Source: a virus (Duplodnaviria > Heunggongvirae > Uroviricota > Caudoviricetes). Taken from it: a DNA stretch of 12,607 bases. The position numbers were made by a program, and so were the translations under genes. Shown here in pieces: positions 1 through 8,109 of this stretch (position 1 is the first letter of the stretch; the number at the start of each line of letters is the position of its first letter). Location of the stretch: the IMG/VR virus record IMGVR_UViG_2695420412_000012; one strand, 5' to 3'. The notes under the pieces were generated by a model. It was not told where the DNA came from. It ran no database searches and saw only the letters and a program-made list of their open reading frames with translations.

Positions 1-135
1 GGCTGCCAGCCCTCTTTCAGTTTGTGTGTCAGCTTTTCCGCAAGGTCTGACGGCGACGCCGCCCTGACAACATCATAATGTTTAAATGTCATTATTCCTC
101 CCGGCCGGGATAGTGTATTAAATCAGATATGGAGT

Positions 136-180
136 GGGCTGTAGTCCGGAAGCCTGAATGACACACGGGGACTACAGCCC
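136..180. repeat. Perfect 12-bp inverted repeat (gggctgtagtcc / ggactacagccc, 136-147 and 169-180) around a 21-nt loop
   Basis: Read directly from the sequence; the arms are exact reverse complements. No ORF of 60 aa or more covers it. Confidence 0.5.
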
Positions 181-276
181 AAGAAATGAAAAAAGGCCAC
201 GCAGTTGCGCAGCCTGATAAACCCTGGTTAAAATCCACACGATAACAACACAACAATATCAGTATCTCATGCTATT

Positions 277-301
277 GCCCGAACCCATTCGGGCATTTTT
301 T
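277..301 (+). terminator. Rho-independent terminator (gcccgaa-ccca-ttcgggc followed by attttttacc)
   Basis: 7-bp GC-rich stem, 4-nt loop, then a T-run on the + strand. Confidence 0.55.
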
Positions 302-307
302 ACCCAT

Positions 308-338
308 AAAAAATGCCCCTCCGGAGAGGGGCATTTTT
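308..338. terminator. Bidirectional rho-independent terminator (A-run, atgcccctc-cgga-gaggggcat, T-run)
   Basis: Perfect 9-bp stem flanked by an A-run upstream and a T-run downstream, so it can terminate either strand. It would end the leftward (minus) late/accessory transcript. Confidence 0.65.
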
Positions 339-535
339 GCATGCACATTCTTTTTCTTGCATGGTGCCGGGTGCCTCCCGGTGAATTCAGTATCAGCACC
401 TGAATCCGCGATTATCACATATACCTACTTGCTGATTGCCCCTCCGCACAGGGGGATTCACCATGCAGTAGTATTTTTAATAAACAGCAAATAAAAAAAT
501 CAAGCATTATGCAGGCTGTTTCTTTTTATCACCGG

Positions 536-667
536 CTACAGCAATACCACAATGCCGCAGACCAGCACCCCATCCGCCAGCACCGACATGATTCTGCTGG
601 TGAAATCCACCATCACCACCAGAAACAGCAGGAGTGCAGCCACAGCCAGGCGCAGTTTTACCGTCAC
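536..667 (-). CDS. Small hydrophobic peptide, 43 codons from GTG (VTVKLRLAVAALLLFLVVMVDFTSRIMSVLADGVLVCGIVVLL)
   Basis: Hand-translated ORF. Its GTG overlaps the TerB-like stop in a GTGA arrangement; mostly hydrophobic residues consistent with one TM helix. Not in the ORF track because it is under 60 aa. Confidence 0.25.
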   Translation of the reverse strand: MTVKLRLAVAALLLFLVVMVDFTSRIMSVLADGVLVCGIVVLL

Positions 668-1059
668 AGGTGATTCTCCAGACGAAGACCCAGAACACCG
701 GCAATCTCTTCCAGCACCTTGCGCTCTTCCGGCTCAATTTCGCCGTCTGCCTCCGCAATGGCCACCGCCACATCCAGCACATCTTCCGCTTCACGCGTAT
801 CGTGTTTCACATCCTCGATCTCACGTAACGCCGCACGACGACCAGTTTTAAAGTTCGTATCCAGCTGACCGATAATGGTTGCGCTAATCGCATTAATTTC
901 TGACGTAAACGCGGACAGCGCAGGCTGATTACGCAGTACCTGTTCGATCTTCGCTTTCTAGGAAGCCTCACATTCACCATCTGCACAGGCCACCAGGTAG
1001 GCAGCATTAATAACCGCCTGTGCCAGATCGCGTTTCTCAAACTTTCCTTTTTCCGGTTA
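664..1059 (-). pseudogene. TerB-like (tellurite-resistance TerB fold) gene remnant interrupted by in-frame stops
   Basis: Minus-strand translation reads ...FEKRDLAQAVINAAYLVACADGECEAS*KAKIEQVLRNQPALSAFTSEINAISATIIGQLDTNFKTGRRAALREIEDVKHDTREAEDVLDVAVAIAEADGEIEPEERKVLEEIAGVLGLRLENHL*. The two ADGxxxxxE-type motifs resemble the TerB fold. There is a TAG at 958-960 and a TAA at 1057-1059 in frame, and no ATG in the frame. Confidence 0.4.
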
Positions 1060-1159
1060 ACGTGACACACCAATAACTCTTGTCGAAAAAGCCAGCAAGC
1101 TGAAAGACCGGTATTCACAACCACCAGCGCGTTTACTGTACTGGCGTGATTTCAGTCAT

Positions 1160-1183
1160 AAAAAAACCCGCCTGGCGACGGGT
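1160..1183 (-). terminator. tR'-like intrinsic terminator downstream of the late promoter
   Basis: On the minus strand, hairpin cccgtc-gcca-ggcggg followed by a T7 run (+ strand A-run at 1160-1166). Confidence 0.6.
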
Positions 1184-1218
1184 GTAAAAAATCTTCTAAC
1201 GTCAGGCATAAAACGCCC

Positions 1219-1258
1219 ATCGTTAGGGCAAATTTACCACAGATTCGGGAAAAATCAA
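1219..1258 (-). promoter_or_regulatory. Lambda-type late promoter pR' with pause/qut-like element
   Basis: Minus strand has TTGATT (-35, + coordinates 1253-1258), a 16-nt spacer, TAAATT (-10, 1231-1236), then ttgccctAACGATggg. This resembles the lambda pR' region as I recall it (ggtaaatttgactcaacgatggg). It lies directly 3' of Q. Confidence 0.6.
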
Positions 1259-1263
1259 CAAAG

Positions 1264-2085
1264 CTATCTGGTCACCTTTTTCAGTTGTTGTTCTGCCCAT
1301 GCTTCTTCAATATCAAACTGCACCACCAGCGTATCGTAAAAACGTTTAACTGTTTTTTTCCATGTATCAAGAGATATGGCATCGGTTACATTACATATGG
1401 CATTAAATGCCTCCGTTGAAGGTAATCTTTCATAGCCACGACCACCACAACGCTGGCAGTCTCTGATAACAGGCATACCACGTTTTACCGACTCTTCACG
1501 ATGAATGGCAACACCGCGCCCACGACAATCTTTACAGGCGGTGGAAACCTCCCCCTTCCCTCCACACTCCGGACAGGCAACTTTTACCACCTCCCTGACT
1601 TTTTTCCATTCCTCCCAGTAAGACGGATACACGCCTTTTGTGCACTTTGCCCACACTGGCGGCTTACCATCCGGATACTGGATCTTGTTTGTAAAAACCT
1701 CGCTTTCAATAAATTTTTTTCCGTGACAACAGGGGCACTGTTTTTTGCTCGCCGCGCTACGGGCATAATCTTCAAACGCATACGAAGCCATAATACGCAT
1801 CACTGCCGGTTTTATTTCTGCCGGGAGTTTTCTTAACGCCGCCACGCGATCACACCGACTGAGTGCATATTCTGTCAGCAATTCTGTTGCCCGCTCTCTG
1901 TCATTCATACTAATGCCCATTTTCCCAAGGAACGCAGAAAACCCCATCTCAGCCCAATTCTGTGTCATGCCCTGCGCGGCCATCACATCAGTGATACTCA
2001 GCGTATCTTTCGACGTTGAGGCCGATGCATCAGTCAGGCCGAGGGATTTTGGGGAGTAGTATTTCGGTAAATCTTCCAGTTTCAT
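1264..2085 (-). CDS. Q: Late-gene antiterminator Q (lambda Q family, 273 aa, with multiple CxxC zinc-binding pairs)
   Basis: ATG at 2083-2085. N-terminus ...YSPKS...TDVMAAQGM... and C-terminus ...LPSTEAFNAI...VKRFYDTLVVQ parallel lambda Q. Cys pairs CPCCHG, CPECGG, CKDCRG, CQRCGG. Followed by the pR'-like promoter. Confidence 0.9.
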   Translation of the reverse strand: MKLEDLPKYYSPKSLGLTDASASTSKDTLSITDVMAAQGMTQNWAEMGFSAFLGKMGISMNDRERATELLTEYALSRCDRVAALRKLPAEIKPAVMRIMASYAFEDYARSAASKKQCPCCHGKKFIESEVFTNKIQYPDGKPPVWAKCTKGVYPSYWEEWKKVREVVKVACPECGGKGEVSTACKDCRGRGVAIHREESVKRGMPVIRDCQRCGGRGYERLPSTEAFNAICNVTDAISLDTWKKTVKRFYDTLVVQFDIEEAWAEQQLKKVTR

Positions 2086-2456
2086 TTTTTGACCTGCCCT
2101 TCAAGCATTATGGGGTAAATCTTCCCCCCCAGACGTCCACCAGATACTGGCTGACCACGAACGATATTGATTTCATCAAACTGCTCATCGTCCATTAACA
2201 CTCCCGCATGCGTCAGCGCATCCAGCGGTGCTTTCAGGATATTGTCCAGGTCGCGACGACGCTTATCCGGTGGCTCCACAATAATCCTGATCGCCAGCCT
2301 TCCGGACAGATTTAATTTCAGTCGCTGCTGGCGAACAATAAGCGCCACATCACGGCGATAACGCTCACCGGCTTTTGATACAAAATATGTGCTGCCACGA
2401 CGTCGCCAGTAGGTGTTCACCGTCGGCGGGTAAGGCAAAACAAACTCTATACGCAT
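2082..2456 (-). CDS. rusA: RusA Holliday-junction resolvase (124 aa)
   Basis: ATG at 2454-2456. Motif [15 protein letters not shown] ... [30 protein letters not shown] is typical of the RusA family. Its stop overlaps the Q start (ATGA). Confidence 0.9.
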   Translation of the reverse strand: MRIEFVLPYPPTVNTYWRRRGSTYFVSKAGERYRRDVALIVRQQRLKLNLSGRLAIRIIVEPPDKRRRDLDNILKAPLDALTHAGVLMDDEQFDEINIVRGQPVSGGRLGGKIYPIMLEGQVKK

Positions 2457-2468
2457 CAGTAACCCCTT

Positions 2469-3500
2469 TTACCCAAGCACGCCGGTTGCAAAGGCGTGAT
2501 CAAGAAAACGAAAAATTAAATCAACCTGAGAACCATGCTTTTCTTCGAACGCCAGCGGATCCGCATGAAGCTCGTTGTGATGCTCCCGACACAGCGGTAG
2601 CGTGAAAATATCGTGGGATTTTGTTCCCATTCCGCCCTGACCATGACCAATCAGGTGATGGGGATCGTCGGCTGGCTTACTACAACACGCACACGGCTGT
2701 GTCTTCACCCAGCGTGTGTATTTCTCGTTAACCCAGCGGCGACGTTTAGGTCGTTTCATGAAAGATTCCGGAGACTCAGGATCAACGGCAATGCTGACCA
2801 CCGTCTTTTCCTGTGGTGGGTTCTGTTGCTGGTGGGCGTGAGGCAGCGGCGCAAGATTTTTTGTGCGCTGTTTCAGTATGCTGGTGGCGGTCTGCTCTCC
2901 CGGTACGATGTCGCTTTCACGGTACATTGAGCGGATTTTTTCTGCACGCAACCCCAGCGAACGACGTAATACCGCTTCCGGTAGCGCGTCCGCCACCTGA
3001 TTGCGGACCGCCCACCAGGATAATTCAGCCAAAGATAATTCACGCTCCTGCGTACCGCTTATTGCGTGACCAGGCGGCTTACCATCCGGATACTGGATCT
3101 TGTTTGTAAAAACCTCGCTTTCAATAAATTTTTTTCCGTGACAACAGGGGCACTGTTTTTTGCTCGCCGCGCTACGGGCATAATCTTCAAACGCATACGA
3201 AGCCATAATACGCATCACTGCCGGTTTTATTTCTGCCGGGAGTTTTCTTAACGCCGCCACGCGATCACACCGACTGAGTGCATATTCTGTCAGCAATTCT
3301 GTTGCCCGCTCTCTGTCATTCATACTAATGCCCATTTTCCCAAGGAACGCAGAAAACCCCATCTCAGCCCAATTCTGTGTCATGCCCTGCGCGGCCATCA
3401 CATCAGTGATACTCAGCGTATCTTTCGACGTTGAGGCCGATGCATCAGTCAGGCCGAGGGATTTTGGGGAGTAGTATTTCGGTAAATCTTCCAGTTTCAT
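2469..3500 (-). CDS. Chimeric in-frame ORF: Q N-terminal 143 codons fused to the C-terminal ~200 codons of the YdfU-like protein
   Basis: 3072-3500 matches the 5' part of Q at 1657-2085; 2469-3071 matches the 3' part of the 349-aa gene at 6204-6806. The breakpoint is at 3071/3072 (gtgacc|aggcggcttacc). The 343-aa ORF reads through it. Confidence 0.7.
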   Translation of the reverse strand: MKLEDLPKYYSPKSLGLTDASASTSKDTLSITDVMAAQGMTQNWAEMGFSAFLGKMGISMNDRERATELLTEYALSRCDRVAALRKLPAEIKPAVMRIMASYAFEDYARSAASKKQCPCCHGKKFIESEVFTNKIQYPDGKPPGHAISGTQERELSLAELSWWAVRNQVADALPEAVLRRSLGLRAEKIRSMYRESDIVPGEQTATSILKQRTKNLAPLPHAHQQQNPPQEKTVVSIAVDPESPESFMKRPKRRRWVNEKYTRWVKTQPCACCSKPADDPHHLIGHGQGGMGTKSHDIFTLPLCREHHNELHADPLAFEEKHGSQVDLIFRFLDHAFATGVLG

Positions 3501-3871
3501 TTTTTGACCTGCCCTTCAAGCATTATGGGGTAAATCTTCCCCCCCAGACGTCCACCAGATACTGGCTGACCACGAACGATATTGATTTCATCAAACTGCT
3601 CATCGTCCATTAACACTCCCGCATGCGTCAGCGCATCCAGCGGTGCTTTCAGGATATTGTCCAGGTCGCGACGACGCTTATCCGGTGGCTCTGCAATCAC
3701 CTTTATCGCCAGCCTTCCGGACAGGATTAATTTCAGCCGCTGCTGGCGAACAATAAGCGCCACAGCCCGGCGATAACGCTTTCCCTCCTCCGAGATAAAA
3801 TATGTGCTGCCACGACGTCGCCAGTAGGTGTTCACCGTTGGCGGGTAAGGTAAAACCAAATCTATGAGCAT
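3497..3871 (-). CDS. rusA: RusA resolvase, divergent copy (124 aa, MLIDLVLPYPP...)
   Basis: ATG at 3869-3871. Same family motifs as the other two copies but with several substitutions (N-terminus, IKVIAEPP, KRYRRAVALIV). Confidence 0.9.
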   Translation of the reverse strand: MLIDLVLPYPPTVNTYWRRRGSTYFISEEGKRYRRAVALIVRQQRLKLILSGRLAIKVIAEPPDKRRRDLDNILKAPLDALTHAGVLMDDEQFDEINIVRGQPVSGGRLGGKIYPIMLEGQVKK

Positions 3872-3883
3872 CAGTCACCTCTT

Positions 3884-4933
3884 TTACCCAAGCACGCCAG
3901 TTGCAAAGGCGTGATCAAGAAAACGAAAAATTAAATCAACCTGAGAGCCATGCTTTTCTTCGAACGCCAGCGGATCCGCATGAAGCTCGTTGTGATGCTC
4001 CCGACACAGCGGTAGCGTGAAAATATCGTGAGATTTTGTCCCCATTCCGCCCTGACCATGACCAATCAGGTGATGGGGATCGTCGGCTGGCTTACCACAA
4101 CACGCACACGGCTGAGTCTTCACCCAGCGTGTGTATTTCTCGTTAACCCAGCGGCGACGTTTAGGTCGTTTCATGAAAGATTCCGGAGACTCAGGATCAA
4201 CGGCAATGCTGACCACCGTCTTTTCCTGTGGTGGGTTCTGTTGCTGGTGGGCGTGAGGCAACGGTGCAAGATTTTTTGTGCGCTGTTTCAATATGCTGGT
4301 GGCGGTCTGCTCTCCCGGTACGATGTCGCTTTCGCGGTACACCGAGCAGATTTTTTCCGCTGGTAATCCCAGCGAGCGACGTAATACCGCTTCCGGTAGC
4401 GCGTCCGCCAGCTGATTGCGGACCGCCCACCAGGATAATTCAGCCAGAGATAATTCACGCTCCTGCGTACCGCTTATTGCGTGACCGATGACGTCAATCA
4501 TCCATGCTGACAGGTTTTGATGAGCAAGTTGCTCGAGTGATTCGGATGTCTGGTCACGCAGCTGGTTGTCGCAGTGCCAGCACAACACCATTGCGCCGGT
4601 ACCATATCGGTGAATAACGGTTTCGCTGTGATGATAATCGCCGTGTGGCCACTGGCAGGATTTAATATGGCGCAACAGCCAGTCAGACAATGCACCAGCA
4701 CCACCAGCAGCACGAATTACCCGTGCGTTACTGAAAAACGGCAGCAATGTTTTGTCTTCCACCAGCGGCTGGCGAACGGCAGGAACGACCCCGGACGGCA
4801 GATTACGCATGCTTTTCGGTTCCGGCTCCACCAGTAACCGGGTATTGTGGAATACCGGCATGGATTCACGGCCCGGCTTAACGATCACCAGCCCGAGTTC
4901 CGGTACCAGAACAGGTCGAAGTAATACCCGCAC
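3884..4933 (-). CDS. YdfU-like 349-aa protein with two Cys/His clusters (DUF968-type, putative HNH-like nuclease), divergent copy
   Basis: GTG at 4931-4933 with GGAGG 4 nt upstream. Cys/His clusters CQWPHGDYHH...CWHCDN and CACC...HHLIGHGQGG...CREHHNELH. Length and position (between a small gene and rusA/Q) match Qin prophage YdfU as I recall it. Confidence 0.8.
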   Translation of the reverse strand: MRVLLRPVLVPELGLVIVKPGRESMPVFHNTRLLVEPEPKSMRNLPSGVVPAVRQPLVEDKTLLPFFSNARVIRAAGGAGALSDWLLRHIKSCQWPHGDYHHSETVIHRYGTGAMVLCWHCDNQLRDQTSESLEQLAHQNLSAWMIDVIGHAISGTQERELSLAELSWWAVRNQLADALPEAVLRRSLGLPAEKICSVYRESDIVPGEQTATSILKQRTKNLAPLPHAHQQQNPPQEKTVVSIAVDPESPESFMKRPKRRRWVNEKYTRWVKTQPCACCGKPADDPHHLIGHGQGGMGTKSHDIFTLPLCREHHNELHADPLAFEEKHGSQVDLIFRFLDHAFATGVLG

Positions 4934-4934
4934 G

Positions 4935-5213
4935 TTACCTCCAGATGCGTTGCTGGAATGTGCGGGACGGACGCGGTGGGCGTTCGGAGTAAGGAAGCCT
5001 GACGGAGATTATCCAGTGACGGTAGTCGAGGCTAAGGGCTTTTTTAACCTCGTATCCGCGCCTGCGGTAACACTGAATTATCCATTCAGCCTGCTCTTCA
5101 GTGCATGGTGGATGCTGGAACCAGTCCGATTTGAATGCATGAAAACGCCGTCCGCACCTGCTGGCAAAGACGGCAGAATCATCAGAATTGTGTAATTTGG
5201 TATCGTGCGCCAT
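4935..5213 (-). CDS. Small protein (92 aa, MAHDTKLHNSDD...) in the position of Qin rem
   Basis: ATG at 5211-5213. Its stop abuts the GTG of the 349-aa gene. Second copy at 7255-7527. The longer 129-aa track ORF is an upstream extension without support. Confidence 0.55.
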   Translation of the reverse strand: MAHDTKLHNSDDSAVFASRCGRRFHAFKSDWFQHPPCTEEQAEWIIQCYRRRGYEVKKALSLDYRHWIISVRLPYSERPPRPSRTFQQRIWR

Positions 5214-5399
5214 CGGTTGTCTCTTCTGGCGCAGCAGGTGCCAGTTGTTCAGGCTGGCGTATAAAGTATAAATAAACTGGTTCCAGTGTAAAGCCCCTAC
5301 ATTAATGGAATAAAAGTCAAACAACAGATTGCTGGGATAAACACAACGCTTATTATTAAAAGCGATTAGATAAATTAAATTTTAATGTTATGCAATTTT

Positions 5400-5570
5400 A
5401 GGTAATGACTCCAACTTATTGATAGTGTTTTATGTTCAGATAATGCCCGATGACTTTGTCATGCAGCTCCACCGATTTTGAGAACGACAGCGACTTCCGT
5501 CCCAGCCGTGCCAGGTGCTGCCTCAGATTCAGGTTATGCCGCTCAATTCGCTGCGTATATCGCTTGCTGA
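5400..5570 (-). mobile_element. insB: IS1 remnant: right terminal inverted repeat plus the 3' end of insB, 171 bp
   Basis: ggtaatgactccaacttattgatagtg... is the IS1 terminal IR. The encoded tail ...[47 protein letters not shown] is the InsB C-terminus. IS1 identity stops at 5570, where Q sequence begins. Confidence 0.9.
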
Positions 5571-5820
5571 ACGCCGCCACACGATCGCACCGACTGAGTG
5601 CATAATCTGCCAGTAATTCTGTTGCCCGCGCCCTGTCATTCATACTGATGCCCATTTTCCCCAGGAACGCAGAAAACCCCATCTCAGCCCGATTCTGTGT
5701 CATGCCCTGCGCGGCCATCACATCAGTGATACTCAGCGCATCTTTTGACGTTGAGGCCGATGCATCGGTCAGGCAAGGGGATTTTGGGGAGTAGTATTTC
5801 GGTAAATCTTCCAGTTTCAT
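5416..5820 (-). pseudogene. Truncated Q (first ~83 codons, divergent allele) fused in frame to the insB 3' end
   Basis: 134-aa ORF: [30 protein letters not shown]...SRCDRVAA then IS1-derived [14 protein letters not shown].... Junction at 5570/5571. Confidence 0.85.
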
Positions 5821-6191
5821 TTTTTGACCTGCTCTTCATGCATTATGGGGTAAATCTTCACCCCCAGACGTCCACCAGATACTGGCTGACCACGAACGAT
5901 ATTGATTTCATCAAACTGCTCATCGTCCATTAACACTCCCGCATGCGTCAGCGCATCCAGCGGTGCTTTCAGGATATTGTCCAGGTCGCGACGACGCTTA
6001 TCCGGTGGCTCCACAATAATCCTGATCGCCAGCCTTCCGGACAGATTTAATTTCAGTCGCTGCTGGCGAACAATAAGCGCCACATCACGGCGATAACGCT
6101 CACCGGCTTTTGATACAAAATATGTGCTGCCACGACGTCGCCAGTAGGTGTTCACCGTCGGCGGGTAAGGCAAAACAAACTCTATACGCAT
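5817..6191 (-). CDS. rusA: RusA resolvase (124 aa)
   Basis: Almost identical to 2082-2456 except at the 3' end ([15 protein letters not shown]), where the overlapping Q allele differs. Confidence 0.9.
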
Positions 6192-6203
6192 CAGTAACCC
6201 CTT

Positions 6204-7253
6204 TTACCCAAGCACGCCGGTTGCAAAGGCGTGATCAAGAAAACGAAAAATTAAATCAACCTGAGAACCATGCTTTTCTTCGAACGCCAGCGGATCCGCA
6301 TGAAGCTCGTTGTGATGCTCCCGACACAGCGGTAGCGTGAAAATATCGTGGGATTTTGTTCCCATTCCGCCCTGACCATGACCAATCAGGTGATGGGGAT
6401 CGTCGGCTGGCTTACTACAACACGCACACGGCTGTGTCTTCACCCAGCGTGTGTATTTCTCGTTAACCCAGCGGCGACGTTTAGGTCGTTTCATGAAAGA
6501 TTCCGGAGACTCAGGATCAACGGCAATGCTGACCACCGTCTTTTCCTGTGGTGGGTTCTGTTGCTGGTGGGCGTGAGGCAGCGGCGCAAGATTTTTTGTG
6601 CGCTGTTTCAGTATGCTGGTGGCGGTCTGCTCTCCCGGTACGATGTCGCTTTCACGGTACATTGAGCGGATTTTTTCTGCACGCAACCCCAGCGAACGAC
6701 GTAATACCGCTTCCGGTAGCGCGTCCGCCACCTGATTGCGGACCGCCCACCAGGATAATTCAGCCAAAGATAATTCACGCTCCTGCGTACCGCTTATTGC
6801 GTGACCGATGACGTCAATCATCCATGCTGACAAGTTTTGGTGAGCAAGTTGCTCAAGTGATTCTGAGGTCTGGTCACGCAACTGGTTGTCGCAGTGCCAG
6901 CACAACACCATTGCGCCGGTACCATAACGGTGAATGACGGTTTCACTGTGGTGATAATCACCGTGTGGCCACTGGCAGGATTTAATATGGCGCAACAGCC
7001 AGTCAGACAGTGCACCAGCGCCGCCAGCAGCACGAATCACACGCTCATTGCTGAAAAATGGCAGTAATGATTTATCCTCCGCCAGCGGCTGGCGAACGGC
7101 AGGGACGACTCCGGATGGCAGGCCGCACATGCTTTTCGGTTCCGGCTCCACCAGCACTCGAGGATTATGAAATATCTGTATGGATTCACGGCCCGGCTTA
7201 AGGACCACCAGCCCAAGCTCAGGCACCAGAACAGGTCTAAGTAATACCCGCAC
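6204..7253 (-). CDS. YdfU-like 349-aa Cys/His-rich protein (DUF968-type, putative HNH-like nuclease)
   Basis: Full-length copy. Its 3' 600 bp is identical to 2469-3071. Confidence 0.8.
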   Translation of the reverse strand: MRVLLRPVLVPELGLVVLKPGRESIQIFHNPRVLVEPEPKSMCGLPSGVVPAVRQPLAEDKSLLPFFSNERVIRAAGGAGALSDWLLRHIKSCQWPHGDYHHSETVIHRYGTGAMVLCWHCDNQLRDQTSESLEQLAHQNLSAWMIDVIGHAISGTQERELSLAELSWWAVRNQVADALPEAVLRRSLGLRAEKIRSMYRESDIVPGEQTATSILKQRTKNLAPLPHAHQQQNPPQEKTVVSIAVDPESPESFMKRPKRRRWVNEKYTRWVKTQPCACCSKPADDPHHLIGHGQGGMGTKSHDIFTLPLCREHHNELHADPLAFEEKHGSQVDLIFRFLDHAFATGVLG

Positions 7254-7254
7254 G

Positions 7255-7527
7255 TTACCTCCAGATCCGTTGCTGGAAAGTGCGGGACGGACGTGGTGGG
7301 CGTTCGGAATAAGGCAGCCTGACAGAGATTATCCAGTGCCGATAGTCGAGACTGAGAGCTTTCTTAACCTCGAACCCGCGCCTGCGGTAAGAATGAATCA
7401 GCCATTCGGCCTGTTCTTCAGTACATGGTGGGTGTTGGTACCAGTCGGTTTTAAATGCGTGTGAACGCCGCTCATGCCGGATGGCAAGGTCGGTATCAGA
7501 ATTGTGAAATTTGGTTTTGTGCGCCAT
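7255..7527 (-). CDS. Small protein (90 aa, MAHKTKFHNSDTD...), rem-position gene
   Basis: ATG at 7525-7527. Paralog of 4935-5213. Confidence 0.55.
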   Translation of the reverse strand: MAHKTKFHNSDTDLAIRHERRSHAFKTDWYQHPPCTEEQAEWLIHSYRRRGFEVKKALSLDYRHWIISVRLPYSERPPRPSRTFQQRIWR

Positions 7528-7597
7528 CTGTTTTCTCTGCTGGCGCAGCAGGTGTCAGGTGTTCAGGCTGACGTGCGAATTGTAAACCAGAATGCCA

Positions 7598-7694: not shown

Positions 7695-7850
7695 TTACTC
7701 CTCAGGTTCGTAAGCTGTGAAGACAGCGACCTCCGTCTGGCCGGTTCGGATTCGTACCTCGCAGAGGTCTTTCCTCGTTACCAGTGCCGTCACTATGACG
7801 GTTAAACAGATGACGATCAGGGCGATTAACATCGCCTTTTGCTGCTTCAT
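7695..7850 (-). CDS. hok: Hok-family membrane toxin (51 aa, HokD/RelF-like)
   Basis: MKQQKAMLIALIVICLTVIVTALVTRKDLCEVRIRTGQTEVAVFTAYEPEE shows the Hok signature (TM helix, TRKxLCE, EVAxFxAYE). AAGGAG lies 9 nt upstream. An in-frame upstream ATG at 7905-7907 would give a 70-codon mok-like extension. Confidence 0.9.
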   Translation of the reverse strand: MKQQKAMLIALIVICLTVIVTALVTRKDLCEVRIRTGQTEVAVFTAYEPEE

Positions 7851-8109
7851 AGCCTGCTTCTCCTTGCCTTTCGGCACGTAAGAGGCTAACCTAGATTTGC
7901 CGTTCATAGATTGAGCCTCAGATTAATGTTAAGCGTCTTGCAGGACGCGTAATGTTAACTGGGGCTTTTCTCTATCTGCCTTTTGGTGTTCATGCCTGAG
8001 ACAGATAGCCTCAAGCACCCGCAGTCATTCTACTTAACTAAGATTTCCCCGCAAACCGTTTTTGTCCGGCACAGTAAATATCCAACTAAACCAATGGCGT
8101 TCGCTGTAT

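Follow-up and report, generated by a model that had tools for sequence, protein, structure and literature searches.

The window analysed here is the whole 12,607-nucleotide stretch of a Caudoviricetes virus record (IMG/VR IMGVR_UViG_2695420412_000012), and all of the genes at its left end are on the minus strand. Their order on that strand is the antiterminator gene Q (1264-2085), an intrinsic terminator (1159-1183), a two-gene cassette, and the start of nanS-p at position 92. The region from 536 to 1045 is very probably a decayed copy of the tciA-tciB cargo cassette of lambdoid prophages, having lost function in three steps while in a Q-dependent late position. Judged by sequence comparison, the cassette is a lambdoid relative of the tciA-tciB pair of phage P1 in decayed form. 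Relative to intact alleles, it carries three lesions: an amber codon at codon 46 of tciA, a deletion of ~1.56 kb at the 5' end, and an amber codon at codon 44 of tciB. The alignment used to define these lesions comprised the window, five intact alleles (JLK-2012, PPyecE_EH1910, FSIS11705876, G8 and OkiPb01692) and four decayed alleles.

The tciA remnant and the truncated tciB gene

The tciA remnant (TerB family; 664-1041, minus strand) contains codons 19-143 and the stop codon and lacks a start codon. A sequence-only reading of this DNA had claimed a TerB-like frame at 664-1056 on the minus strand. Indeed, this frame, which reads PEKGKFEKRDLAQAVINAAYLVACADGECEAS*KAKIEQ...LRLENHL and contains an in-frame TAG at 958-960, matches Pfam PF05099 (TerB) once the TAG is masked, with an E value of 9.5e-11 and 42.5 bits against a cut-off of 24.4. 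The match covers positions 2-109 of the 118 in the profile. With this score and that of the DUF3927 profile described below, the raw observation is real and lies far outside what chance would give. The amber is found at Glu46 (GAG to TAG) and represents a single G-to-T change relative to FSIS11705876, the closest intact allele, which has TCC GAG at this site. Codon-by-codon comparison with the FSIS11705876 allele revealed nine substitutions in the remnant: seven synonymous changes, Val27Ala and the nonsense change. Residue 27 is alanine in the window and in the other intact alleles examined, and valine in FSIS11705876. Across the aligned stretch, the remnant is identical to the allele of RM6927.

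No uninterrupted TerB reading frame with a start codon is left in the remnant. The longest start-to-stop piece is a 48-codon GTG ORF (664-810), which corresponds to residues 96-143. In identical genomes, RefSeq labels the gene 'tellurite resistance TerB family protein' and marks it as a pseudogene with an 'internal stop'. TciA cannot be produced from the window copy, as the start and codons 1-18 are deleted and codon 46 is a TAG. Thus, the earlier proposal that the gene is now inactive is correct, with the start lost and ambers in both tciA and tciB. A PHROGs family of 48 positions, phrog_3920, also matches residues 96-143 of intact tciA (E 1.5e-35). This family is an annotation artefact: gene calls on the tail of dead tciA are so frequent that they make up a family of their own.

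Intact lambdoid TciA is 143 aa in length, and its N-terminus (MFGIFKKKTRRAA.EIKKFEKRDL) is absent from the window. Among phage genomes, tblastn matches were obtained to the annotated tciA and tciB of phage JLK-2012 (98%), to the 'TciA/TerB-like protein' of PPyecE_EH1910 (96%) and to P1 TciA (38%). The intact allele matches phrog_632 ('tellurite resistance') with an E value of 1e-68. TerB of terZABCDE, for which a structure has been solved (PDB 2JXU), has the same Pfam domain, and the intact allele is similar to it in sequence across the whole domain (E 2.9e-7). Unlike in terZABCDE, ter genes such as terC and terD are absent from the surroundings of the cassette, which is a phage cargo pair. 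With NCBIfam, intact TciA gave only sub-threshold partial matches to DjlA and YmfL. A known anti-phage defence system was considered and rejected for lack of PADLOC support: among the PADLOC defence models, intact TciA had one partial match (13.9 bits, E 0.005) and TciB had none. Relatives of TciA that are 65-71% identical are found in Erwinia jumbo phages, with more distant relatives in Vibrio, Pseudomonas, Klebsiella and Salmonella phages. The alternative-frame ORFs at 807-1124 and 507-794 (minus strand) and at 552-851 and 509-673 (plus strand) have no Pfam match and were discarded as spurious.

The truncated tciB gene (DUF3927; 536-667, minus strand) retains 43 of 55 codons and terminates at a stop codon at 536-538. 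Its GTG start overlaps the tciA stop codon within the sequence GTGA (664-667), and a GGAG ribosome-binding site is found 8 nt upstream of the GTG. The ORF matches DUF3927 (PF13064) with an E value of 6.8e-12 and 45.6 bits against a cut-off of 25, and also matches the TciB-like family phrog_1470 in PHROGs (E 1.6e-21). The DUF3927 match extends over profile positions 2-41 of 53, the last 12 residues being lost to the amber. A single G-to-A change converts Trp44 (TGG) to TAG at 536-538, and tciB is otherwise identical to the FSIS11705876 allele. Past this stop, the former frame runs on unchanged to the old stop codon at 500-502, and the alignment to P1 TciB passes through the amber and reaches position 515. 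The sequence-only reading had described a 43-codon hydrophobic ORF overlapping the TerB stop. The overlap is there, but the reading missed that the ORF is itself truncated by a nonsense codon. Its suggestion that the peptide could be a membrane partner agrees with the phrog_1470 match, which identifies the ORF as a homologue of TciB, the partner gene in P1.

Intact TciB proteins are 52-55 aa in length and have two hydrophobic segments, both of which are kept in the window. The truncated peptide ends at the last residue of the second segment, so that a basic tail present in every intact tciB allele examined is removed. The mutated Trp44 is the tryptophan of a WP(I/V)(L/I)K motif that is common to P1 TciB. 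At most, the window could give rise to a tail-less 43-aa TciB. In identical genomes, RefSeq calls the truncated tciB an intact 'DUF3927 family protein' (WP_001344632.1); its listing as an intact protein is an annotation artefact, and the gene is a nonsense-truncated tciB.

We considered whether the 43-aa TciB could still be a working small membrane protein, in which case the cassette would be reduced rather than dead. A residual peptide is possible because the GGAG site, both hydrophobic segments and the RefSeq call of an intact gene are retained. Additionally, the GTG start is present, the DUF3927 model is matched above its cut-off, and the allele occurs in 95 records. However, only one substitution, G to A, separates this allele from an intact one, and the resulting stop both hits the tryptophan of the motif and deletes the basic tail. 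The partner gene is dead as well, and the GTGA overlap no longer provides translational coupling. Residual function of the 43-aa TciB is thus possible but unlikely, and we regard a reduced but working cassette as improbable. A decayed, non-functional cassette is the reading we retain.

Small RNAs, nanS-p and lysis genes downstream

Directly downstream of tciB, beginning 44 nt past its stop codon, is the small RNA STnc100 (302-492, minus strand), a full-length match to Rfam RF02076 with 146 bits against a gathering score of 47. Its terminator hairpin is found at 309-338 and folds with -22 kcal/mol (z -4.1). Convergent with STnc100 is the anti-GcvB sponge RNA AgvB (240-301, plus strand), which equals the family consensus of Rfam RF02702 (96.5 bits against 56) and has a terminator hairpin at 276-295. 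Strong hairpins with T-runs are present at 276-301 on the plus strand and at 302-338 on the minus strand, and both fold well. The terminators placed at 277-338 by the sequence-only reading do exist as hairpins with T-runs, but they are the ends of STnc100 and AgvB and not terminators of the cassette. Convergent anti-sRNA pairs have been described 3' of PR' in the moron site of Stx phages (Tree et al. 2014, PMC4104026), and the window likewise carries AgvB and STnc100 as such a pair. STnc100, AgvB and TerB genes were reported to be common prophage-sRNA neighbours in a 2026 preprint (10.64898/2026.05.13.724894).

The position of STnc100 immediately downstream and on the same strand, together with a remnant that is nearly unchanged in hundreds of genomes, would fit a role of the remnant as RNA in cis, either as part of the late-transcript leader or as precursor or promoter context for STnc100. 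We find such a role quite unlikely. The conservation is explained by recent common descent, and, lesions aside, the remnant differs from intact alleles almost solely at synonymous sites. Additionally, 536-1045 has no structure or family match, and STnc100 occurs without tciAB in many other settings (10.64898/2026.05.13.724894). Similarly, we consider it very doubtful that the 43-aa TciB, or else the tciA remnant as a transcript, has taken on a new function of its own, for instance as a small membrane peptide or as a leader influencing STnc100 or the late genes. If true, this would explain why the triple-lesion allele has been kept, and not deleted, in ~95 finished genomes. The remnant at present is probably a transcribed spacer between tR' and the STnc100/AgvB pair, and nothing more.

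The left end of the window (1-92, minus strand) contains the first 30 codons of nanS-p, a yjhS-like gene for a SASA-family sialate O-acetylesterase (translation MTFKHYDVVRAASPSDLAEKLTHKLKEGWQ). Window positions 1-2100 are 99.8% identical to, and collinear with, the genomes of RM14723 and FDAARGOS_293. In both genomes the nanS-p start is collinear with a SASA esterase gene, which separates the cargo slot from the lysis cassette. Beyond the left edge of the window, the collinear genomes carry nanS-p, a class II holin gene, a lysozyme gene and Rz within 0.4-5 kb, with the class II holin and lysozyme genes ~2.4-3.6 kb further on. Given this collinearity and the nanS-p start at the window edge, the lysis genes are expected ~2.4 kb past the left edge. 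The sequence-only reading had placed the cassette where lysis genes belong and had raised the possibility that these genes lie past the left edge. The placement was wrong, as nanS-p, holin, lysozyme and Rz follow in the collinear genomes, and the lysis genes are indeed found past that edge in RM14723 and FDAARGOS_293.

The hydrophobic ORF at 536-667 had also been suggested to be a holin-like relic. It is small, has two hydrophobic segments and lies downstream of Q. However, its matches are to DUF3927 and the TciB-like family, with no holin match from Pfam, PHROGs or NCBIfam; a separate class II holin gene is located further downstream in collinear genomes, and in P1 its counterpart is the partner of tciA, far from the lysis genes. 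A holin origin is therefore hardly credible, and we treat the ORF as truncated tciB.

Two further structures are present in this part of the window. The 5' untranslated region of nanS-p contains a perfect 13-bp inverted repeat (135-147 with 169-181) with 21 nt between its arms, and a terminator-like hairpin with a T-run is found at 194-215 on the minus strand (-14.9 kcal/mol, z -3.2).

The intact order, as found in phage JLK-2012, PPyecE_EH1910 and numerous prophages, is Q, the tR' leader, orf65 with a methylase or helix-turn-helix (HTH) gene and tRNA genes, tciA, tciB, nanS-p, holin, endolysin and Rz. The tciA-tciB pair occupies the late cargo ('moron') slot, which lies between pR'/tR' on one side and nanS-p with the lysis genes on the other. 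Synteny with JLK-2012 and PPyecE_EH1910 bears out the position claimed by the sequence-only reading, namely that of a cargo gene under Q control in the slot taken by stx. In Stx phages, stx is located in the same zone between Q/pR'/tR' and nanS-p/S, and in the window the cargo is dead tciAB.

Q, the post-tR' leader and the deletion junction

The Q protein encoded upstream of the cassette (1264-2085, minus strand) is 273 aa in length, matches Pfam PF03589 (Antiterm) with an E value of 4.7e-50, and is annotated as 'antitermination protein' in identical genomes. From the arrangement of the sequence, we infer that Q would drive the late transcript running through the tciA-tciB remnant. A putative pR' (1219-1258, minus strand) was read directly from the sequence and consists of TTGATT (1258-1253), a 16-nt spacer, TGG-TAAATT with the -10 element TAAATT at 1236-1231, and AACGAT at 1224-1219. 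A consensus promoter scan did not call this promoter, which has 8 of 12 hexamer matches where the tool minimum is 9, so it is placed by eye only. We take the stretch from 1258 to 1219 to resemble pR' of lambda, and AACGAT to resemble the lambda pR' pause element. A terminator scan identified a tR'-type intrinsic terminator (1159-1183, minus strand), in which a 7-bp G+C stem (1166-1183) is followed by seven T; it folds with -12 kcal/mol (z -3.0).

Alignments show that the terminator is followed by a conserved leader (1046-1158, minus strand). The leader contains both the TAA at 1057-1059, which the sequence-only reading had taken as a second break inside the gene, and the LAGFFDKSYW reading, which it had taken as an N-terminal piece in another frame. 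Neither belongs to tciA. The TAA is found 4 codons upstream of the deletion junction, and the sequence containing LAGFFDKSYW precedes an unrelated ORF of 65 codons elsewhere: in UTI89, PPyecE_EH1910 and RM6927, the same leader is continuous with the ribosome-binding site and ATG of this ORF (orf65). The leader segment at 1043-1190 matched ~2,250 E. coli records, mostly without an annotated gene beneath it. The leader (1046-1190) follows at least three types of Q: the 273-aa type found here, a 381-bp type in PPyecE_EH1910 and a DUF1133-type in RM6927. Immediately behind the T-run of the terminator, the leader begins with a mini-ORF (ATG ACT GAA ATC ACG CCA GTA CAG TAA).

Homology to tciA stops sharply at 1041-1045 in the alignments, i.e. 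at codon 19. Here, a deletion junction with a 4-nt AAAG microhomology (1042-1045, minus strand) joins the leader to codon 19 of tciA. Relative to the layout of RM6927, the deletion comprises ~1,561 bp and removes orf65, a helix-turn-helix gene, three tRNA genes and tciA codons 1-18. The region usually found upstream of intact tciA (orf65, an HTH or methylase gene, and tRNA genes) is absent from the window, and no tRNA genes were found within the window. The tRNA genes that usually precede tciA were lost with the ~1.56 kb deletion.

The sequence-only reading had instead described a full-length TerB gene broken by two nonsense codons and a frameshift, with LAGFFDKSYW as its N-terminus in the other frame. 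There is a superficial likeness between LAGFFDKS and the true N-terminus, MFGIFKKK. However, the leader is the same base for base before orf65 in UTI89, PPyecE_EH1910 and RM6927, where tciA is either missing or at another location, and homology to tciA ends sharply at 1042-1045. A frameshifted full-length gene is thus extremely unlikely. The 5' lesion is the ~1.56 kb deletion, and there is no frameshift.

Further upstream, the DUF968-RusA-Q module (1264-7574) is present as three partial tandem copies, with repeat pairs 1658-3071 and 3073-4486 (96.5%), 1829-3071 and 5564-6806 (98.3%), and 3244-5260 and 5564-7574 (91.3%). The ORF at 2469-3500 (minus strand) fuses the N-terminus of Q to the C-terminus of DUF968 (Pfam Antiterm and DUF968). 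A search of 5,426 complete E. coli genomes and of a one-genome-per-species collection did not find this Q::DUF968 junction, and the window as a whole has no collinear counterpart among the complete E. coli genomes. The repeats may have arisen by local amplification or may be an artefact of assembly. A third Q copy (5416-5820, minus strand) is truncated, with ~84 of its residues joined to the C-terminal ~53 residues of an IS1 transposase (Pfam DDE_Tnp_IS1, E 7.6e-26, covering 79-131 of the 131 profile positions); this fusion marks where an IS1 insertion or deletion took place. The Rfam sok antitoxin RNA (112 bits) was found at 7845-8020 on the minus strand. It is part of a hokD/sok-type toxin-antitoxin locus, whose annotated counterpart in related prophages lies at the corresponding position.

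Lesion order, related systems and biological meaning

Comparison with intact homologues, which the sequence-only reading had proposed as a way to date the lesions, placed all three of them, and intermediate alleles suggest their order. RM6927 carries a full-length tciA with the TAG only; its 5' end is normal, the upstream tRNA genes are present and tciB is intact. The O157:H7 strain Rafaela_II has both the TAG and the deletion junction, and its 55-codon tciB is intact. All three lesions are found in the window, RM14723, the O157 strain FDAARGOS_293 and the O121:H19 strain FWSEC0006. Thus, the states of RM6927, Rafaela_II and the window indicate the order tciA nonsense, deletion, tciB nonsense. 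On the simplest reading of these alleles, an amber would first have arisen at codon 46 of tciA. A deletion of ~1.56 kb at the AAAG microhomology would then have fused the leader to codon 19, with loss of the start codon, orf65, the regulator and the tRNA genes. Lastly, an amber at codon 44 of tciB would have cost the gene product its conserved Trp-Pro-x-x-Lys motif and its basic tail. This order presupposes descent and not recombination between alleles, and lambdoid prophages recombine freely.

To count the markers, we used 20,395 records from 5,426 finished E. coli genomes. The in-frame TAG at 958-960, reported by the sequence-only reading and seen here, is contained in an exact 61-mer found in 521 records. 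The deletion junction is spanned in 476 records, and an exact 61-mer around the tciB TAG occurs in 95. The dead allele is common in O157:H7, O55:H7, O145, O121, O103 and related strains. With the intact 5' end of tciA as query and a coverage of at least 80%, we found 793 records from 790 of the 5,426 finished E. coli genomes. That the stop codons are sequencing or assembly errors in otherwise intact genes has virtually no chance of being true: nothing specific speaks for it beyond the unusual tandem structure elsewhere in the window, and error is excluded because identical lesions recur in hundreds of independently finished genomes (521, 476 and 95 records).

Intact lambdoid cassettes (PP_41/PP_42 of JLK-2012; PPyecE_EH1910; WP_001302123.1 with WP_000216636.1) contain the same genes as the window at 96-99% identity and have the same downstream neighbours, i.e. 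the sRNA pair, nanS-p and the lysis genes. Compared with them, the window copy has lost the start and codons 1-18 of tciA, carries ambers at tciA codon 46 and tciB codon 44, and lacks the upstream genes through deletion. In P1, too, a TerB-family gene overlaps a small gene immediately downstream whose product has two hydrophobic segments. P1 TciA and TciB both have tblastn matches in the window in the same order, and over the aligned parts, TciA is 38% and TciB 55% identical. Both TciB proteins carry the pattern DFTS...SVL.DG...WP..K. P1 TciC had no tblastn match in window positions 1-1300 at E values up to 10; STnc100 is found there instead, and in intact lambdoid cassettes no gene is annotated at the tciC position. 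The lambdoid cassette also differs from P1 in its location, lying in the late-operon cargo slot whereas the P1 operon is expressed from C1-repressed ban promoters upstream of ban. Additionally, the window copy differs from that of P1 in being non-functional.

P1 tciA, tciB and tciC were non-essential in a CRISPRi screen, and their function was assigned by homology (PMC10695390). Among P1-like phage-plasmids, one P1 subgroup has lost the tciABC operon in about half of its members (PMC9603915). In the literature we searched for tciA and tciB, function was given by homology only and an experimental function was not found. Because the intact pair is located downstream of Q/pR'/tR', we infer that it is made from the Q-antiterminated late transcript. 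This transcript would yield a soluble TerB-fold TciA of 143 aa and a TciB of 55 aa; the position of the pair is observed, and its expression is predicted from it. TciB, with its two hydrophobic segments and basic tail, would anchor TciA at the inner membrane. The anchored pair would then modify envelope or stress physiology, or the entry of colicins or phages. We offer this membrane-anchored function as a working model drawn by analogy from TerB homology and the annotation of P1.

The dead tciA-tciB copy in the window is ordinary and is already represented in public annotation and in the literature. Its biological weight is very small, being that of one more prophage cargo gene decaying stepwise. 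For annotation, the finding is of value in that truncated tciB is routinely called intact and the tail of dead tciA is called as a gene. The three intermediate states provide a clean series of markers for recombination among lambdoid prophages of EHEC. At the level of the family, intact tciAB is found in the stx-type slot of ~790 of 5,426 finished E. coli genomes.
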